From the NCBI GenBank assembly GCA_008080735.1, contig SHMW01000007.1:21315-85314 (forward strand): a stretch of DNA of 64,000 nt, in the 5' to 3' direction. How positions within the stretch are numbered: the first letter of the stretch is position 1; every line of letters starts with the position of its first letter. Below are positions 2,909 through 9,984 of this stretch, piece by piece. Under the pieces are notes generated by a model. The model saw only the letters and a program-made list of their open reading frames with translations, made no database searches and was not told the origin of the DNA. This DNA comes from Promethearchaeota archaeon. Its GTDB lineage: Archaea > Asgardarchaeota > Lokiarchaeia > Sigyniarchaeales > SOKP01. The position numbers and the translations under genes were made by a program.

Positions 2909-3340
2909 TCAATATGAGATATCCCGGTCCTCTAAAAACGATTTAATTTTTTCTTCAAGTTCATCCCGTGCAGATCTAAATCGTTCAATTCTTTCTTCCT
3001 CAGAACCTTCAAATGCAGCGGGATCTTCAATATTCCAAAATAACCTCGTGCTCACTCCTGGCAGGGTGGGACATAATTTTTCAGCCTTTTGACATACGGT
3101 AATAACAATCCCGAAATGCTTCTCTCCTAAATATTGATCCAAATCTTTAGAGTAATGATCACTCATATCATATCCCTTTTCTTCCATAACTTTTTTAGTA
3201 AGAGGATGAATTTCCTTTGGCTCAAACCCCGCGCTGAATACATTGAAATAATCTCCAGCAAGTTTGTCCAAAATCGCTTCTGCCATCTGACTTCTTGCTT
3301 GATTATGAGTACATAAAAAAATTACACTCGGCTTTTTCAT
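2909..3340 (-). CDS. arsC: Arsenate reductase, LMW-PTP / thioredoxin-coupled type
   Basis: CTHNQARSQMAE P-loop, TVC..CP resolving pair, WNIEDP. Confidence 0.88.
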   Translation of the reverse strand: MKKPSVIFLCTHNQARSQMAEAILDKLAGDYFNVFSAGFEPKEIHPLTKKVMEEKGYDMSDHYSKDLDQYLGEKHFGIVITVCQKAEKLCPTLPGVSTRLFWNIEDPAAFEGSEEERIERFRSARDELEEKIKSFLEDRDISY

Positions 3341-3489: not shown

Positions 3490-3942
3490 TTAATCAAAAT
3501 AATGTCCAAAGTGTTCGTGGTTTTTTCCATATCTTTTATCTAAGCTATTTTTAAATTCAGCAATGTCTAACCTTTCCCGAATCTTTTCTCATCAACAACC
3601 AGGGTCAAGTTGAATATTAATGTCACTCTCTGGTATTAAGGAATAATCGGGATTTTCATGTAAAGGCATAAATTCTCTATTAGGGCCGTAGGCCATTATT
3701 CCCACATCATCATATATTTTATTGGTTTTCGGATTCCAGATTAATTGTAAATAGTTATAAATATATCCTTCGAAAATGGGGAAGATACAATCTTCTGGAT
3801 TATTTTTTATGTATTTGTCGACTTTAGCAATGGCTTCAGCTAGATTCGCATCGTCTTTAATTTGGACATTAAAAGATTTTCCTTGAGACAACCCACTATA
3901 GGGCATGCTTATACTAATTTTGATGGTTTTAAATTCAATCAC
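3490..3942 (-). CDS. MoaD/ThiS-like beta-grasp protein; putative selenoprotein with tandem UGA-UGA (GC-U-U), 150 aa if read through (116 aa to first TGA)
   Basis: GTG start 3942; ...CCT GGT TGT TGA TGA GAA AAG ATT..., then 32 open codons (EKIRERLDIAEFKNSLDKRYGKNHEHFGHYFD) to TAA TAA TAA; SECIS-like hairpin directly downstream. Confidence 0.55.
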
Positions 3943-4005: not shown

Positions 4006-4431
4006 CTATTTGCTTGACCATAATTTGACCTTACTTTCTATTTGGTCACGTATTTTTCTAAAAAAAGCCAATTTTTCCTCCTCGGAGCCTTCAAACGCTG
4101 CGGGGTCTTCGAAAGGCCAATGTAATTCTTCTTGTACACCCAGAATAGTGGGGCAGGATTCTTTAGCACTCGAACAAACAGTAATAACAATATCAATATC
4201 AATTTTCTTCATTAATTCTCTTATATGCTTTGAGTTATGACCACTCCAATCGAATCCTGCCTCTTCGAGCACTTTTATAGTATATGGATGTATGGGATGC
4301 GGTTCTGTTCCTGCACTATAGGCATTATATCTATCATTTCCATATTTATTGATAAATGCTTCCGTCATTTGACTCCTGCATGAGTTCCCCGTACATACGA
4401 CTACTATATTTTTTTTACCCATTTGAATCAT
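4006..4431 (-). CDS. arsC: Arsenate reductase, thioredoxin-coupled type
   Basis: CTGNSCRSQM, TVCSSAKESCP, HWPFEDP. Confidence 0.93.
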   Translation of the reverse strand: MIQMGKKNIVVVCTGNSCRSQMTEAFINKYGNDRYNAYSAGTEPHPIHPYTIKVLEEAGFDWSGHNSKHIRELMKKIDIDIVITVCSSAKESCPTILGVQEELHWPFEDPAAFEGSEEEKLAFFRKIRDQIESKVKLWSSK

Positions 4432-4462: not shown

Positions 4463-4741
4463 TTAATTTATGAATCCTCTTTCCTTTAAAATCTTGGGTA
4501 ATTGTTTTTTTAAAGCATAAACTGAGGATATTTTTTTTTTTTCATCAATTATAATACATTTTTGAAATAATTTCATCTTCGCAGCTTTTTTGGAATGTAA
4601 TGATTTTGTATCGTGTTCAATATATTTTATATATGGTGTAAGGACTTCAAAAACGCGATTCATAAAATTTTCCCATTCACATGCACAAACTTGAAGCGGA
4701 ACATAAATATCTACTTTAACTTTTTCATTCTGGTTTGACAT
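4463..4741 (-). CDS. Small Cys-motif protein (CxC), possible thioredoxin-like/metal chaperone
   Basis: VDIYVPLQVCACEW strand-CxC-helix pattern; inside ars/hgc operon. Confidence 0.55.
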   Translation of the reverse strand: MSNQNEKVKVDIYVPLQVCACEWENFMNRVFEVLTPYIKYIEHDTKSLHSKKAAKMKLFQKCIIIDEKKKISSVYALKKQLPKILKERGFIN

Positions 4742-4768: not shown

Positions 4769-5104
4769 TTAACAACAACATTCATTATTATTTTTCTTCG
4801 AACGTTTTCTAGCATCCCATAAGCACCCACACCCTTTTTGTTCTTGCATTATTATCGCGTGGGTTGGACAATTTCTCTCACATGCACTACATTCAGTACA
4901 TTTTTCAGGCTCACCGATATTATATGTCCCATCGTTTTCCTCTTTTAGAAGTCCAAATGGGCATATCTCCTCACACAAACCGCAACCGATACATTTTGAG
5001 GGATCTATAGCTATCTTTAAGTTTAAATTCTTCAAAAAACCTTCAATAACACTGCTAGAGTCACAACAGCTATTGTTTTTTTCTAATTTTGTCATTTTTC
5101 TCAA
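4769..5104 (-). CDS. hgcB: HgcB-like 2[4Fe-4S] ferredoxin
   Basis: CIGCGLCEEICP and CTECSACERNCP, GCGC, C-terminal CCC; directly downstream of HgcA-like gene. Confidence 0.8.
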   Translation of the reverse strand: MRKMTKLEKNNSCCDSSSVIEGFLKNLNLKIAIDPSKCIGCGLCEEICPFGLLKEENDGTYNIGEPEKCTECSACERNCPTHAIIMQEQKGCGCLWDARKRSKKNNNECCC

Positions 5105-5121
5105 AACATTATAGATTCTTA

Positions 5122-6786
5122 TTATAATATTATTATACTCAAAAGGGTAAGAAATAACCCAACACAGAGTAAAATGTAATTTAATTTTTTAAATAATGGA
5201 TATTCATTTCTAATTTCTCTTGGGTTTGTTGACATAGTATATCCGCTAAAAGACATTGTAGTGAAGAATCCAATCCATAGAAAAAAGATTAAATTTAGAA
5301 TAACGTAGTATAACGAAAAACTAAGAAACCACGTAACTATTCCAAGGGAAATTGTATTAATAATACCAAAAAACATACTTTTTAGAACAAAATTACGCGT
5401 AAAGTTAGAGAGAGGGTAAAGGAGAATTAATAAAAGATTTGGAAAGAGTATCCAAATTAAAAGATCGGCAGCCATCCAAGTTTTATTGATGATATTCGCA
5501 AGATCTAGGGCAAAAAGGATAAAAAATAGAATAATTAATGGAAGAAGAAATATTTTTCTCAAAAGAAATGTCGTATGTGTTATTCCCGCAGGAATCCGAT
5601 GTCGGAAAGTAAATTTGGCTCTCTTCATTTGCTTAGACTTCTTCTTTGGTTTTTTAATAAGGTATTCCTTCAAGTACCGTGACCATACTGGACCATATTC
5701 AATCTTAAATGGAAATATTTCTGAATGCTCTGGTAAATTGGGTTTTGAAAGCCCTCCGGCAGAAAGCTGGGGTAAAATGATAGTATTATTGTCAGTAATA
5801 TGTTTCACGCCTGTCGCTTCAACCGCTTCAAGTAATTGTTCATTACCAAAATCATCTCCTCTCGCAGCACACCAGACATTAATACCATTAGAGTCAATAC
5901 ATAATATCCATGCATCAATACCTTCTAAATCTCTCATAACTTTAATAAAAGTATATGCATAATTAGCAGTTGCAATAATCGGAGAATAATTATTTGGATT
6001 ACCCGATTTATATAATCCAGGTTCAATCGGAACATTATCAACCTGACCTGTCAATAGGCATCTCCAAATTTTTAGTTGTGATGAAATACCTTTTATTTTT
6101 GGTTTTTCTGGTTTATAATAACCCGGTTCATTCTTTTCTTCTTCAAATGATTTTTCTAATTCTATAGCTTGAATTGATCCGTGAGTCCATTTTTTTATGT
6201 CGGCTATTTTGAAACCAATCGGTTCTAAATAATCTTCAAAATACTCTAAAGGATTAGTTCTCTCAAGTTTTAATCTTCTTAATTTTTTATTATATAACCA
6301 CCTTTTCACCCAGAATGGAACCTTCCAAACTCCAGAGGGAATAAACTCTGCTGCAATTATTAATCGACCATCAGATTTTAATGCTTTCCACGCATTACGA
6401 AGAAAGATTTGTTGTTCCAACGGTCTTAGTTCTGATAACATAAAGGTACTAATGATTAAATCCTGAGAATCCTCTGGAACTTTCAAATCTTTAATTGTAC
6501 CAATTTGATATAGCAAATCTATATTATCTTTTTTTGGCATATTTTTCAAAGCATAGCTAATCATCTGATAATTTTCATCAAGAGCTCTGACTTTAGCGCC
6601 TTTTAACGCAATCTTTAAAGCCAAAATCCCAGTGCCGCACCCAACTTCTAAAACAGATTGATCATATTCAATCTTTTCTAAGATCCAGTTCTGAATTTTA
6701 ATATTTACTCCTTTTGTGAGATTAGTAAACTTTGAATCGTAATTTGCAGGTTCCTGCTCCAATTTTTGCATGTAAGTAACAGCCAT
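5122..6786 (-). CDS. Class I SAM methyltransferase fused to HgcA-like corrinoid-binding and transmembrane domains
   Basis: N-term VLEVGCGTG. Middle PIEPGLY..SPIIATANY..DAWILCIDSNGINVWCAARG..ILPQLSA..YGPVW. C-term TM helices with TMSFSGYT..TNPREIRNEY. Confidence 0.88.
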   Translation of the reverse strand: MAVTYMQKLEQEPANYDSKFTNLTKGVNIKIQNWILEKIEYDQSVLEVGCGTGILALKIALKGAKVRALDENYQMISYALKNMPKKDNIDLLYQIGTIKDLKVPEDSQDLIISTFMLSELRPLEQQIFLRNAWKALKSDGRLIIAAEFIPSGVWKVPFWVKRWLYNKKLRRLKLERTNPLEYFEDYLEPIGFKIADIKKWTHGSIQAIELEKSFEEEKNEPGYYKPEKPKIKGISSQLKIWRCLLTGQVDNVPIEPGLYKSGNPNNYSPIIATANYAYTFIKVMRDLEGIDAWILCIDSNGINVWCAARGDDFGNEQLLEAVEATGVKHITDNNTIILPQLSAGGLSKPNLPEHSEIFPFKIEYGPVWSRYLKEYLIKKPKKKSKQMKRAKFTFRHRIPAGITHTTFLLRKIFLLPLIILFFILFALDLANIINKTWMAADLLIWILFPNLLLILLYPLSNFTRNFVLKSMFFGIINTISLGIVTWFLSFSLYYVILNLIFFLWIGFFTTMSFSGYTMSTNPREIRNEYPLFKKLNYILLCVGLFLTLLSIIIL

Positions 6787-6810: not shown

Positions 6811-7875
6811 TTATTTTTTATTTATCCTCCAAAAGCCTTTTCTTCCGAGGAATTTCCCTATATATACAATGGAGAGCATTATTGGAATCTCCCAAAAAAG
6901 CCCCATAGTTGTCCCAAGGGCAGCTATGCTTCCAACCCCGTATAATCCCACTGCAGTTGCGATTGCAATTTCAAAATGCGACGATGAACCTATTATTACG
7001 CTGATTATCGCCTCCTTATAAGCGAAGCCCAGAATTTTCGTAACCATGATGTTGTATAAGACAACGATAAAAAATCCCACCAACAAGGGGATAGAAACGA
7101 TGACCATTAATTGGGGATTGTTCAATAATACTTCTCCATTTAAGGAAAACAGAATAATTAATGTTGTCAATAAGGCTACGATAGAGATCTTTCCTACAGC
7201 AGGTTTATAGGTATTTTGAAACCAACTTTCACCTTTCGATTTTATTAAAAATTTTCGTGAAAGAATGCCTATTAAAAGTGGAAGTCCAATGAAAACTATT
7301 CCAGAAATTAGAAGTTGAGTCCAATCAATAGGGATATTCTGTATTCCCGTCAATAAAGACACCATAGGTACATATCCAATTATTATTGTAATCGTGTTTA
7401 TGCTAGTTGTCAATACATTCTGTTCTTGATTTCCTTTTGCCATCCAACCCCAAACTAGGACCATCGCGGTACATGGAGAACTGGATAAAAGAATTATTGC
7501 AACAATGAGCTGCTGATCCACTAAAAAAATGTTAGCCATTGCCAATCCGACAAATGGGGCAATTAACCAATTTGAAACTAACGTGGCGATGACGGGTTTT
7601 GGATCTCTTCCTATCTGTTTTAATTCTGAGTATTGAAAATTTAACATCGCAGGATACATCATCAAAAATAAGCAAATGCCTATAGGAATTGAGATCCCAC
7701 CTATTTTGATTGATTCGATGAATTCTCCTATTCCTGAAACCACTTGAGAAAGTAAAATCCCAATGAATATACATAGAGCAACCCACGCAGGAAGAAACTT
7801 TTCAAAATAGCCAAGTTTTTTTTCTCTTTCTTTTAGCTCTTCCTCAATAGTTACTGAATTTCTTTTTTCAGACAT
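6811..7875 (-). CDS. acr3: Arsenite efflux transporter Acr3
   Basis: LFLMMYP, SNWLIAP, SPCTAMVLVW, SSSHFEIAIA; about 10 TM segments. Confidence 0.95.
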   Translation of the reverse strand: MSEKRNSVTIEEELKEREKKLGYFEKFLPAWVALCIFIGILLSQVVSGIGEFIESIKIGGISIPIGICLFLMMYPAMLNFQYSELKQIGRDPKPVIATLVSNWLIAPFVGLAMANIFLVDQQLIVAIILLSSSPCTAMVLVWGWMAKGNQEQNVLTTSINTITIIIGYVPMVSLLTGIQNIPIDWTQLLISGIVFIGLPLLIGILSRKFLIKSKGESWFQNTYKPAVGKISIVALLTTLIILFSLNGEVLLNNPQLMVIVSIPLLVGFFIVVLYNIMVTKILGFAYKEAIISVIIGSSSHFEIAIATAVGLYGVGSIAALGTTMGLFWEIPIMLSIVYIGKFLGRKGFWRINKK

Positions 7876-8094: not shown

Positions 8095-8880
8095 TTATTC
8101 TAAATGAGAATGTGGAGATCCGAGAGGAACCAATGTATAATCGCCTCCAGATTCAAGTAAACCTTTTTTAAGGAGTTCTTCACAGAAGGGATTACCATAA
8201 AGATTTATATACAAATTTTTATTATGAATATAAGGGAGGATATCATCAGGGTTTGCGAGGAGATTACTTGAGAGTTCGACGGTGAGAAGATTTGGATGGC
8301 TAGTAAGATCGGGAAGCCGAGTTATTTGATTATTGAAGAGTAAAAGCTCATATAAATCAGGGAGAGAATAAATTTCACGAATTTTATCTATCTTATTACA
8401 ATTTATAGAGAGAGATCTTAGCTTTTTCAGTTTTTCAAGTCCTTCCATTTTAATAATATTATTCCAACCTAATGAAAGTCCTTCTAAATTTATATTTTTT
8501 TCTAACCCTTGAATAGTTCTAACTTGATTTAATTGGAGGGATAATCTTTTCAGTTTTGTTAGATTTTCGAGTCCTTTAATTTTAGAGATCTTATTTCTTC
8601 CTAAATTAAGAACTACAAGATTTTTGAGATGATTGATTCCTTTAATCTCACTGATTTGATTGTTACATAAACTTAGATATCTTAAGTTAGAAAGATATTT
8701 AATTCCTTGGATTTTAGATAACTTGCATCCAGAAATATCAATTCTTTTTAATTCAGTTAGACTTTCAAGCCCTTTTATTTCTGTAATATCTTTAAGTGTC
8801 GGAGAATTATTTATTATTAGTGAATTATTGCTAACATAGAATTTTTGACCATCAAACTCTACACACTGATTTTCTGTCAT
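8095..8880 (-). CDS. Leucine-rich repeat protein (SDS22-like)
   Basis: Repeated LxxLxLxxNxIxxIxGL units. Confidence 0.92.
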   Translation of the reverse strand: MTENQCVEFDGQKFYVSNNSLIINNSPTLKDITEIKGLESLTELKRIDISGCKLSKIQGIKYLSNLRYLSLCNNQISEIKGINHLKNLVVLNLGRNKISKIKGLENLTKLKRLSLQLNQVRTIQGLEKNINLEGLSLGWNNIIKMEGLEKLKKLRSLSINCNKIDKIREIYSLPDLYELLLFNNQITRLPDLTSHPNLLTVELSSNLLANPDDILPYIHNKNLYINLYGNPFCEELLKKGLLESGGDYTLVPLGSPHSHLE

Positions 8881-8985
8881 TTTATATTAAAAGAAAGAAA
8901 AATGTGTATTTAAAAATACTCTCTGTGGAATTTTTTAATTTATGATTGCTCGATTATATTGAATAATCAGAAAAAAAATCTCTGT

Positions 8986-9429
8986 TTAATTCTTAATTAT
9001 AGAGACCCCACCATAAATTGCTGCATAGGTGCCTAAAAAGGACATAATTTGCATTAATGTCGCTATCGCCATTAAACTCATAAATTTAATAATCGTTTGC
9101 TGAGAAGGTTCAACTTTTTTTATGTCTTTACATTCATATCCTCCTACTTTAGAAATCACCCAGTTCATCGAGGCAGCACAGCAATCAATCGCATTATTTA
9201 AATTATATTCCAAAGTGTTGAAAAATTTATATTGGGGAGAGTTAGGATTTGTCCAATGTTCTCTCCATCCATCTTTTGTTGTAGCAGCCGAAAAGAAAGT
9301 GTCACGAGCAACCTTAAATGTTAGAGTCTCTGGATTCCAAAATTTAGTATTTAATAGATTAGGTAATATTTTTTGAGAAGGAATATTAGCGAAAAAGTAT
9401 AAAAATCGAAAATTTGTGATATTCTTCTT
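8986..9429 (-). pseudogene. Probable 5'-truncated gene remnant or gene with non-standard start
   Basis: The frame of the 75-aa ORF stays open upstream to 9429 (..KFWNPETLTFKVARDTFFSAATTKDGWREHWTNPNSPQYKFF..) with no ATG/GTG/TTG before 9213; hydrophobic C-terminus. Confidence 0.35.
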
Positions 9430-9594: not shown

Positions 9595-9984
9595 GTGATG
9601 AATACTTTAGAGAGTTGCGTGGATATGGAGGGTGTTAATATGGTCCAATATTTTAATGAATTGAGGGAATTAGGAAAATCTATTCAAAAAAATAAAAAGT
9701 TTAGAGAAGTCTTGGACTTCTGCAACACTCTGGGCAATGAAGAACGTTTAAAAATCGTTGAGAGTCTTAAAAAGCAAGACCATTGTGTATGCGAATTAGA
9801 GGTTATTTTAGACAAATCTCAACCAACCATTTCCCATCACTTACGGGAACTGGAAAAGATTGGACTCATACGAGGCTGGAAAAAAGGAAAATTTACTCAT
9901 TATGATATTGTTGATGAGAAAATGGAGCATTATATAAGTTTATTGACATCACGTTTTAAAGAGAAGGGAAAATCCTCTAATTAA
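9595..9984 (+). CDS. arsR: ArsR/SmtB family metalloregulator
   Basis: LGNEERLKIV, HCVCELEVIL, SQPTISHHLRELEKIGLI; CVC As(III)-type site; divergent from the acr3 operon. Confidence 0.88.
   Translation: MMNTLESCVDMEGVNMVQYFNELRELGKSIQKNKKFREVLDFCNTLGNEERLKIVESLKKQDHCVCELEVILDKSQPTISHHLRELEKIGLIRGWKKGKFTHYDIVDEKMEHYISLLTSRFKEKGKSSN

Follow-up and report, generated by a model that had tools for sequence, protein, structure and literature searches.

A CpaM-like methyltransferase fused to an HgcA-like corrinoid protein, encoded with an HgcB-like ferredoxin in an Asgard archaeal arsenic operon

Among the closest described relatives of the genes considered here are HgcA and HgcB, the corrinoid protein and ferredoxin known from mercury methylation. 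With purified HgcAB, S-adenosylmethionine (SAM) methylates Co(I) to Cys-ligated methylcob(III)alamin while HgcB supplies the electrons (PMC11588087), so that SAM as the HgcAB methyl donor, mentioned in an earlier sequence-only reading of our locus, is a published result. The hgcAB genes have been linked to ars genes (PMC7438021) and are under ArsR control in strain ND132 (bioRxiv 10.1101/2022.10.17.512643). The HgcA superfamily, its association with the corrinoid protein-associated methyltransferase CpaM and HgcAB-like fusions (all in NCBIfam) are already known, as is the published link to arsenic. Here we analyse a 64,000-nucleotide stretch (the window) of contig SHMW01000007.1 from a Promethearchaeota archaeon. 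It encodes a 554-residue fusion of a CpaM-like methyltransferase with an HgcA-like corrinoid protein, followed by a separate HgcB-like ferredoxin, inside an arsenic operon. We propose, with about even confidence, that the two proteins form a corrinoid methyltransferase of the "CpaM + HgcAB-like" kind, built of three modules and anchored in the membrane, a SAM-fed relay acting on arsenic or another soft metalloid.

The pair consists of the following features.
5122..6786, minus strand: fusion gene, 554 aa, comprising a CpaM-like methyltransferase, an HgcA-like corrinoid domain and a domain of five transmembrane (TM) helices
6142..6786, minus strand: class I SAM methyltransferase domain, aa 1-215, from the CpaM model NF043040 and Foldseek matches
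5617..6045, minus strand: corrinoid-binding domain of the HgcA/corrinoid iron-sulphur protein (CFeSP) type, aa 248-390, from Pfam CdhD, CFeSP matches in the PDB and 9a0b_A as top fold
5857..5880, minus strand: cap helix NVWCAARG, aa 303-310, from direct reading and conservation
5128..5607, minus strand: five TM helices, aa 394-553, with a conserved TMSFSGYTM loop, from the AlphaFold2 model
4769..5104, minus strand: HgcB-like 2x[4Fe-4S] ferredoxin with a Cys-rich tail, 111 aa, from the HgcB_ferredoxin match

The sequence-only reading had joined a class I methyltransferase, a corrinoid domain and a TM domain in this one open reading frame (ORF), and both the domain matches and the AlphaFold2 model bear this out. 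Residues 4-211 match the NCBIfam CpaM model NF043040 with 140.6 bits (E 4.6e-41, model positions 3-215 of 216). No other methyltransferase model comes close for the N-terminus, the runner-up reaching only 48 bits, and this makes specific the link to CpaM that had been drawn before. The same residues are matched by many generic Pfam class I methyltransferase models and, weakly, by TehB (29 bits) and ArsM (35.8 bits). The CpaM cutoff of 180 bits is not reached, whereas the related fused proteins P0155 and P0174 do pass it (230.6 and 192.2 bits). Motif I reads LEVGCGTG (aa 46-53). The SAM motifs are intact, with G49, G51, G53, D70 and D109 invariant across 60 fused sequences, and D70, D109, E119 and E147 are invariant in both alignments A1 and A2. 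The sole conserved Cys of the domain in the 60 sequences is C50, inside the GxGxG loop. As there is no conserved Cys outside this glycine loop, the domain is unlikely to bind a metalloid in the manner of ArsM, and the lack of a conserved metal-binding Cys fits a corrinoid acceptor.

Residues 248-550 match HgcA_corrinoid (NF040863) with 168.9 bits (E 1.5e-49, model positions 24-322 of 325), and the HgcAB-like model NF043039 scores the fusion equally (168.4 bits, cutoff 285). Pfam CdhD (PF03599) matches aa 240-343 with 50.1 bits, above its gathering threshold of 24.8, and the PDB sequence matches of the corrinoid domain are to the CFeSP large subunit (2h9a and 4c1n). The cap helix NVWCAARG keeps its Cys, as had been read from the sequence; N303, V304, W305, C306 and A308 are invariant in the 60 fused proteins, while G310 is invariant only in alignment A1 (at least 90% in A2). 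C306 is the presumed lower axial ligand of the cobalt. The AlphaFold2 model, built on 60 homologues, has a pLDDT of 91.6 and a pTM of 0.87 and contains a Rossmann methyltransferase, the corrinoid domain and long helices at 394-429, 437-460, 466-489, 492-516 and 522-553. A C-terminal multi-helix TM domain is thus predicted as in HgcA, whose model is matched up to position 322 of 325; G515 in this region is invariant. In the PDB, Foldseek ranks first the HgcA chain of 9a0b, a computed HgcAB model, and the N-terminal part of the fusion resembles small-molecule SAM methyltransferases.

The ferredoxin ORF begins 17 bp downstream of the fusion gene, with a true start that is probably the ATG at 5095. 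It carries two CX2CX2CX3C motifs, CTECSAC at aa 69-75, an N-terminal SCC and a C-terminal ECCC, in agreement with the HgcB-like partner seen in the sequence-only reading. Its best model is HgcB_ferredoxin NF040864 (55.9 bits, below the cutoff of 99). Both cluster motifs and the C-terminal CC(C/G) tail are present and conserved; the eleven invariant Cys of the Asgard ferredoxins are the eight of the clusters, two in a GCGC motif and one at the C-terminus. Wherever a core Asgard or Thorarchaeota locus continues beyond the fusion, an HgcB-like ORF or tblastn match of 80-120 aa lies directly downstream; among the bacterial fused loci, tblastn finds such a match in about half.

A complex predicted for fusion residues 236-554 and the ferredoxin supports binding of the two proteins, with an ipSAE of 0.70 against 0.00 for the best control. 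In a benchmark, this value was reached by 58 of 80 solved complexes and by 2 of 110 mismatched pairs; as our prediction used our own alignments, these counts are approximate. The runs share at least 91% of contacts, and the pLDDT of the partner is at least 72. In the predicted interface, the cap-helix residues 305-311 and the TM loop 511-532 face ferredoxin residues 67-80 and 88-102, that is, the second cluster motif and the GCGC segment. The prediction could partly mirror likeness to modelled HgcAB.

The fusion is a widespread Asgard family, also present in Chloroflexota and other bacteria, and not a singularity. A search of 5.8 billion proteins returned 607 relatives, and the following counts use the best 120 of these, clustered at 90% identity. 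Almost all are 545-578 aa long (one is a 485-aa partial), with identical Pfam architecture and 56-77% identity, and 117 of the 120 keep NVWCAARG. With at least 120 clusters and this conservation of the cap helix, we take the fusion to be a real family rather than a product of chance or assembly. The named sources are metagenome-assembled genomes (MAGs) of Promethearchaeota/Lokiarchaeota, Hermod-, Heimdall- and Hodarchaeota, and the proteins are annotated merely as "methyltransferase domain-containing protein". At E <= 1e-40, 57 of 201 genomes of the window's phylum have a match, including 30 of the 40 in the window's own family. Remoter proteins with the same N-terminal methyltransferase occur in Thorarchaeota (again with NVWCAARG), Hodarchaeales/Kariarchaeaceae and Heimdall genomes, and some are named "corrinoid protein-associated methyltransferase CpaM" by the NCBI pipeline. 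Bacterial fused forms, mostly with NVWCAAGG, come from Anaerolineae and other Chloroflexota, Abyssubacteria and Poribacteria. Loci from Nitrospiria (L057) and Deltaproteobacteria (L058) have a stand-alone CpaM of ~220 aa instead of a fusion.

How does this family relate to canonical HgcA? The HgcA model, with a cutoff of 275, gives 344-421 bits for the representatives that carry NVWCAAGK, and with the HgcAB-like model the true HgcA-HgcB fusions reach 346-396 bits. Every methyltransferase-fused protein tested fails both cutoffs, with 169-210 and 168-216 bits, respectively. The fusion also departs from the HgcAB-like description in that its ferredoxin is encoded separately, and from the canonical cap helix N(V/I)WCA(A/G)GK in that GK has become RG. 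Two of the checks that the sequence-only reading had proposed gave a divided picture. In the scoring, the HgcA and CpaM cutoffs were missed (168.9 against 275, 140.6 against 180) and Pfam CdhD was passed (50.1); in a tree, a grouping outside HgcA-like proteins was not seen, but the fusion fell outside HgcA proper. This tree, built by maximum likelihood under LG+C20+F+G4 from 57 rows of the HgcA-like domain alone, was rooted on the CdhE of the same genome. It recovers canonical HgcA as a clade supported at 99/100 that excludes the fusion, the core Asgard family at 100/99 and, with its Thorarchaeota sister clade, at 98/95; the bacterial fused forms are interleaved with HgcAB-like fusions. In an earlier, quicker tree with poorer sampling the canonical clade had 71% support, and the richer sample and more careful search raised it to 99/100. 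Because it lies below the curated cutoffs and outside the canonical clade, the fusion is best described as a separate paralogous lineage, within the HgcA superfamily but outside HgcA proper. The deep order of the canonical, Asgard and HgcAB-like/bacterial-fused clades has only 47-61% support, and we make no claim that the fusion family is sister to the HgcAB-like proteins.

This placement bears on whether the pair is a functional mercury methylase, namely an HgcAB orthologue with an added SAM-loading domain that would make Asgard archaea real producers of methylmercury. The cap-helix Cys and the five-TM domain are kept, the fold resembles the HgcA model, and the ferredoxin has a Cys pair at its C-terminus as well as a counterpart of HgcB C73. 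Canonical HgcA has ars neighbours too: in our locus scan, canonical hgcA loci adjoin arsC in 9 of 45 cases and acr3 in 4 of 45, which agrees with the published linkage (PMC7438021) and with ArsR control in ND132 (bioRxiv 10.1101/2022.10.17.512643). The scores of both proteins (168.9 bits against 275, 55.9 against 99) and the exclusion from the canonical clade argue against it, as does the replacement by RG of the cap-helix GK that 103 of 150 representatives carry. Beside the loci examined, we saw no mer genes. We therefore regard mercury methylation by this pair as very improbable.

The sequence-only reading warned that strict motif filters for hgcA would miss this protein. They would, but what they pass over is not a wrongly lost divergent HgcA, since the protein is below the cutoffs and outside the clade supported at 99/100. 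Lenient thresholds matter as well. The HgcA model is matched at E <= 1e-30 in 74 of the 201 Asgard genomes, and only one (G025, with 9% contamination) exceeds the cutoff, so Asgard "putative mercury methylators" called leniently are probably mostly paralogues of the fusion kind, and environmental surveys with such hidden Markov model thresholds would count them as Asgard mercury methylators. Lin et al. placed Loki- and Thorarchaeota sequences in a "fused hgcAB" clade, after dropping the first 327 alignment columns as poorly aligned (PMC10083202). These sequences may be CpaM-HgcA fusions whose methyltransferase domain was overlooked. The source genome has no second HgcA-like gene besides CdhE; its CdhE-like protein (P0271, contig 32) has no NVWC, and a "2 TAG" flag on that match proved, on checking, to concern an intact 487-aa ORF.

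The order of the modules provides the strongest available support for a methyltransferase that serves the corrinoid protein, though it is not proof. In the source genome the layout is [CpaM-HgcA-like][HgcB-like], an in-frame fusion that agrees with the description of CpaM as adjoining or fused to an HgcA-like corrinoid protein. Elsewhere the same three modules occur as [CpaM][HgcA-HgcB] and as a single triple fusion. In L107 and L108, a stand-alone CpaM scoring 220 and 204.5 bits, above the cutoff of 180, lies upstream of the true HgcAB-like fusions P0230 and P0237, with gaps of 5 and 19 bp. The triple fusion CpaM-HgcA-HgcB (591 aa, L062:152-1927, contig JAUWPC010000395.1 of a Desulfobacteraceae MAG) passes both the CpaM (269.7 bits) and the HgcAB-like (371.2 bits) cutoffs. 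The dedicated SAM-to-cobalamin loading domain suggested earlier thus gains from the split, double and triple forms as far as a single functional unit is concerned; methyl loading itself would still be read from analogy.

The N-terminal domain might instead do something other than load methyl groups, either rescuing Co(II) by reductive methylation, as in methionine synthase, or methylating the substrate directly with the corrinoid protein and ferredoxin as reductase. The weak similarity to the metalloid methyltransferases TehB (29 bits) and ArsM (36 bits) is compatible with this. Challenger-type arsenic methylation requires reduction steps, which the corrinoid protein and ferredoxin could serve. 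Purified canonical HgcAB also uses SAM without a methyltransferase domain (PMC11588087), so a dedicated loader is not obligatory in the superfamily. Set against this, none of the loci examined yielded another methyl-donor module, such as one of the MeTr or MtaA type, conserved substrate-binding Cys are absent from the domain, and the obligate linkage or fusion with a corrinoid protein in three arrangements points to direct interplay. We consider a non-loading role distinctly unlikely.

The location of the pair in an ars operon, absent from the sequence-only reading, is the main clue to its substrate. The neighbouring genes in the AT-rich window (about 30-36% GC) are listed below.
9595..9984, plus strand: ArsR/SmtB-family regulator (Pfam HTH_5, 57.3 bits; NCBIfam HTH_metalloreg, 74.6 bits, cutoff 55)
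6811..7875, minus strand: ACR3 arsenite efflux permease (TIGR00832, 275.6 bits, cutoff 282.8; Pfam SBF, 139 bits)
4463..4741, minus strand: 92-aa protein with the CxC motif VCACEW, without a Pfam or NCBIfam match
4006..4431, minus strand: thioredoxin-type arsenate reductase ArsC, copy 1 (TIGR02691, 138.3 bits, below the cutoff of 174.3; LMWPc, 76 bits)
3490..3942, minus strand: 116-aa protein ending in PGC, then TGA-TGA and a 32-codon continuation, a candidate selenoprotein with two adjacent selenocysteines (Sec-Sec)
2909..3340, minus strand: thioredoxin-type arsenate reductase ArsC, copy 2 (TIGR02691, 115.1 bits, below the cutoff of 174.3; LMWPc, 69.5 bits)

On one strand, the order is ACR3-fusion-ferredoxin-92aa-ArsC-116aa-ArsC, in which 17-63 bp separate neighbouring genes between ACR3 and the 116-aa ORF, and 251 bp follow before the second ArsC; the ACR3 stop codon lies 24 bp ahead of the fusion start. 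The ArsR gene is divergent from this string. When 15 distinct core Asgard loci were searched by tblastn with the proteins of the window, ACR3 was found within 10 kb in 7 of them, a strong ArsR in 8 and ArsC in 2. A Heimdall locus (L003) is among those linked to ACR3 and reads ArsR | DUF166-ACR3-fusion-ferredoxin-89aa-82aa-YdjM. The Loki-type L005/L038 reads ArsR | DUF166-ACR3-ArsM-fusion-ferredoxin-129aa-117aa-YdjM-HD; here a true ArsM (347 bits, cutoff 263) separates ACR3 from the fusion. ArsR homologues lie just upstream in L003, L005/L038, L030, L031, L035, L036 and L039, of which L030 and L031 have an ArsR homologue beside the pair and no further ars gene that we could find. A weak ArsR-like gene is directly upstream in three of the four Thorarchaeota loci. 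Since the pair is internal to an ArsR/ACR3/ArsC (sometimes ArsM) operon here and in about half of the close relatives, the likeliest acceptor is arsenic, in the form of As(III) or a methylarsenical, or else a different soft metalloid, while inorganic mercury is less likely as the native substrate.

Several observations weigh against a relay directed at arsenic, besides the SAM use of canonical HgcAB without a loader. Five or six of the 15 core Asgard loci (one is truncated) have no ars neighbours, ars genes are found in none of the 18 bacterial fused loci, and there are none at the Heimdall/Hod-type fusions either. The linked loci are also syntenic further out, with SMC and a 421-aa gene on one side and YdjM and HD on the other. 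Because this synteny runs over a long stretch (SMC...ArsR...YdjM-HD), part of the ars association could reflect shared ancestry and inherited gene order, and the loci are not independent observations. The tree places the ACR3-linked L036 below the remaining close relatives and groups the ars-less L029 and L032 in one subclade, positions that fit an ancestral ars linkage and later loss. The canonical ArsM beside the fusion in L005/L038 means that the fusion is not a simple ArsM substitute. As both coexist in one relative, the system might complement rather than replace ArsM, by acting on other arsenic species or under conditions that disfavour oxidative methylation. The source genome (G000), a MAG that is 93% complete, has no match to CobS (PF02654), an absence that its incompleteness leaves unproven; as the genome does encode a CdhE-type corrinoid protein, the organism would then probably salvage its corrinoid. 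The same limit applies to the lack in this genome of an ArsM above cutoff and of a stand-alone CpaM. Finally, the function of the lineage is read from genes and predicted structures.

The same pattern of linkage could mean that the pair acts on a thiol, a lipid, a quinone or another membrane-associated molecule, with the ars genes merely inherited in synteny or co-regulated. The invariant unit is indeed just the fusion and its ferredoxin, ars genes are missing from many loci, and regulators differ, with MarR in L006 and ArsR-like proteins elsewhere. Moreover, ArsR-family proteins near hgcAB can sense S-adenosylhomocysteine and not arsenic (bioRxiv 10.1101/2022.10.17.512643). A non-metal substrate is harder to reconcile with a pair placed inside an operon between ACR3 and ArsC at gaps of 17-31 bp, and with an ACR3 linkage shared by Loki-type and Heimdall-type genomes at an identity of only 58% between their fusion proteins. 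The conserved extra Cys of the ferredoxin (GCGC and the terminal CC) would be needless in a mere electron carrier. On these grounds we think a non-metal substrate unlikely.

For the SAM-fed relay acting on arsenic or a soft metalloid, we envisage the following steps. The HgcB-like ferredoxin would bring the protein-bound corrinoid to the Co(I) state by reduction. The class I methyltransferase domain at the N-terminus would then move the methyl group of SAM to Co(I), catalysing or speeding this step, and the resulting CH3-Co(III) would be held beneath the Cys306 cap helix. From there, the methyl group may be delivered at the membrane face to a thiophilic acceptor, which the ferredoxin would present through its Cys-rich GCGC motif and C-terminal CC tail. 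By analogy with purified HgcAB, we infer that the protein binds cobalamin and that methyl groups flow in this direction.

In the ars-linked loci, the pair is accompanied by small Cys-rich proteins, one of them with candidate Sec. Homologues of the 92-aa protein lie near the ferredoxin in L003, L028, L035 and L038, and a copy in L027 lies ~4 kb downstream. The family motif is VDIYVPL..CAC.W, and the L038 copy bears a Cys-rich N-terminal extension (SCC...SCCGS). This protein may be a thiol-based metalloid carrier. The TGA-TGA after the 116-aa-type ORF recurs in Heimdall- and Loki-type loci (L003:9311-9670, L028:3609-3968, L035:12388-12738 and L038:12441-12800). It is preceded by ...GC in L003, L035 and L038 and by ...HAD in L028, whose contig ends 8 codons past the TGA-TGA. 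The following peptide is kept in L003, L035 and L038 as E[KA]V..RLD...FK......YGK....F.HYF, with one in-frame stop in L035. The 116-aa ORF and its continuation fit a candidate Cys-Sec-Sec selenoprotein. Neither the 92-aa and 116-aa ORFs nor the 179-aa and 258-aa ORFs beside ArsR have a significant Pfam or NCBIfam match. Between ArsR and ACR3, positions 8095-9213 (minus strand) hold two ORFs, one for a leucine-rich-repeat protein of 261 aa and one of 75 aa that has a CC motif and a hydrophobic tail; the corresponding position in L003 and L005 is occupied by a DUF166 (DfsP-like) gene. A scan for sigma-70 promoters and terminators, a model not applicable to archaea, gave background level, and short inverted repeats upstream of ACR3 and of ArsR are too weak for an operator call.

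Our literature search found no paper on the CpaM-HgcA fusion, its Asgard family or its placement in ars operons, although a description in the selenoprotein paper by Haft (PMC9879109) is possible. A search for CpaM or corrinoid protein-associated methyltransferase likewise found no paper. If the proposed relay holds, a class I methyltransferase would act on a protein-bound corrinoid. To our knowledge, this type of reaction has not been described for the class I fold. Because the fusion is a conserved paralogue with a built-in SAM methyltransferase and is encoded within an arsenic operon, the fusion-ferredoxin pair makes an "arsenic first" hypothesis for the native function of the superfamily testable with two genes. 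Anaerobes have been known since the 1970s to methylate arsenic in a methylcobalamin-dependent way, and we know of no dedicated enzyme identified for this. A more far-reaching and rather doubtful possibility is that the whole lineage is a dedicated corrinoid-dependent methyltransferase for arsenic or soft metalloids. SAM would methylate Co(I), and the methylcorrinoid would alkylate thiol- or selenol-bound As(III) or methylarsenite at the membrane, alongside ACR3, ArsC, sometimes ArsM, and the putative Cys-Sec-Sec carrier. In that case, the lineage would be the missing enzyme for the methylcobalamin-type arsenic methylation of anaerobes, and metalloid handling, not mercury methylation, would be the ancestral job of the HgcAB superfamily.

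Four known systems invite comparison. With HgcA/HgcB (NF040863/NF040864; for example in Pseudodesulfovibrio mercurii ND132), the pair shares five TM helices that follow a corrinoid domain of the CFeSP type bearing an N-V-W-C cap helix, an adjoining 2x[4Fe-4S] ferredoxin with a Cys tail, SAM as the likely methyl source and frequent ars neighbours. It differs in the extra 215-aa CpaM-like methyltransferase domain, in a cap helix that reads ...CAARG rather than ...CA(A/G)GK, and in a partner with CTECSAC and GCGC where HgcB has C(M/I)ECGAC and GVGC. Both genes stay under the curated cutoffs, and the fusion forms a separate clade. The HgcAB-like fusions with CpaM (NF043039 and NF043040), a group that includes the non-methylating fused HgcAB of Pyrococcus furiosus, have the same three modules, a cap helix without GK (in P0230 even NVWCAARG) and the CpaM-type N-terminal signature YM.KLE.EP..YD. 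Here, the fusion point is shifted, as CpaM is joined to HgcA and the ferredoxin is separate; the fusion scores 168 bits (cutoff 285) and 141 bits (cutoff 180) and belongs to its own Asgard clade. The CFeSP large subunit (AcsC/CdhE; PF03599) has a homologous corrinoid-binding domain. The fusion lacks its N-terminal [4Fe-4S] domain and TIM barrel and has TM and methyltransferase domains instead, whereas CdhE lacks the cap-helix Cys. ArsM (NF008823), finally, shares with the fusion the class I SAM methyltransferase fold and the ars-operon location. Against its model, the fusion scores 35.8 bits, below the cutoff of 263, and has no conserved As(III)-binding Cys, and in L005 a true ArsM stands beside the fusion.

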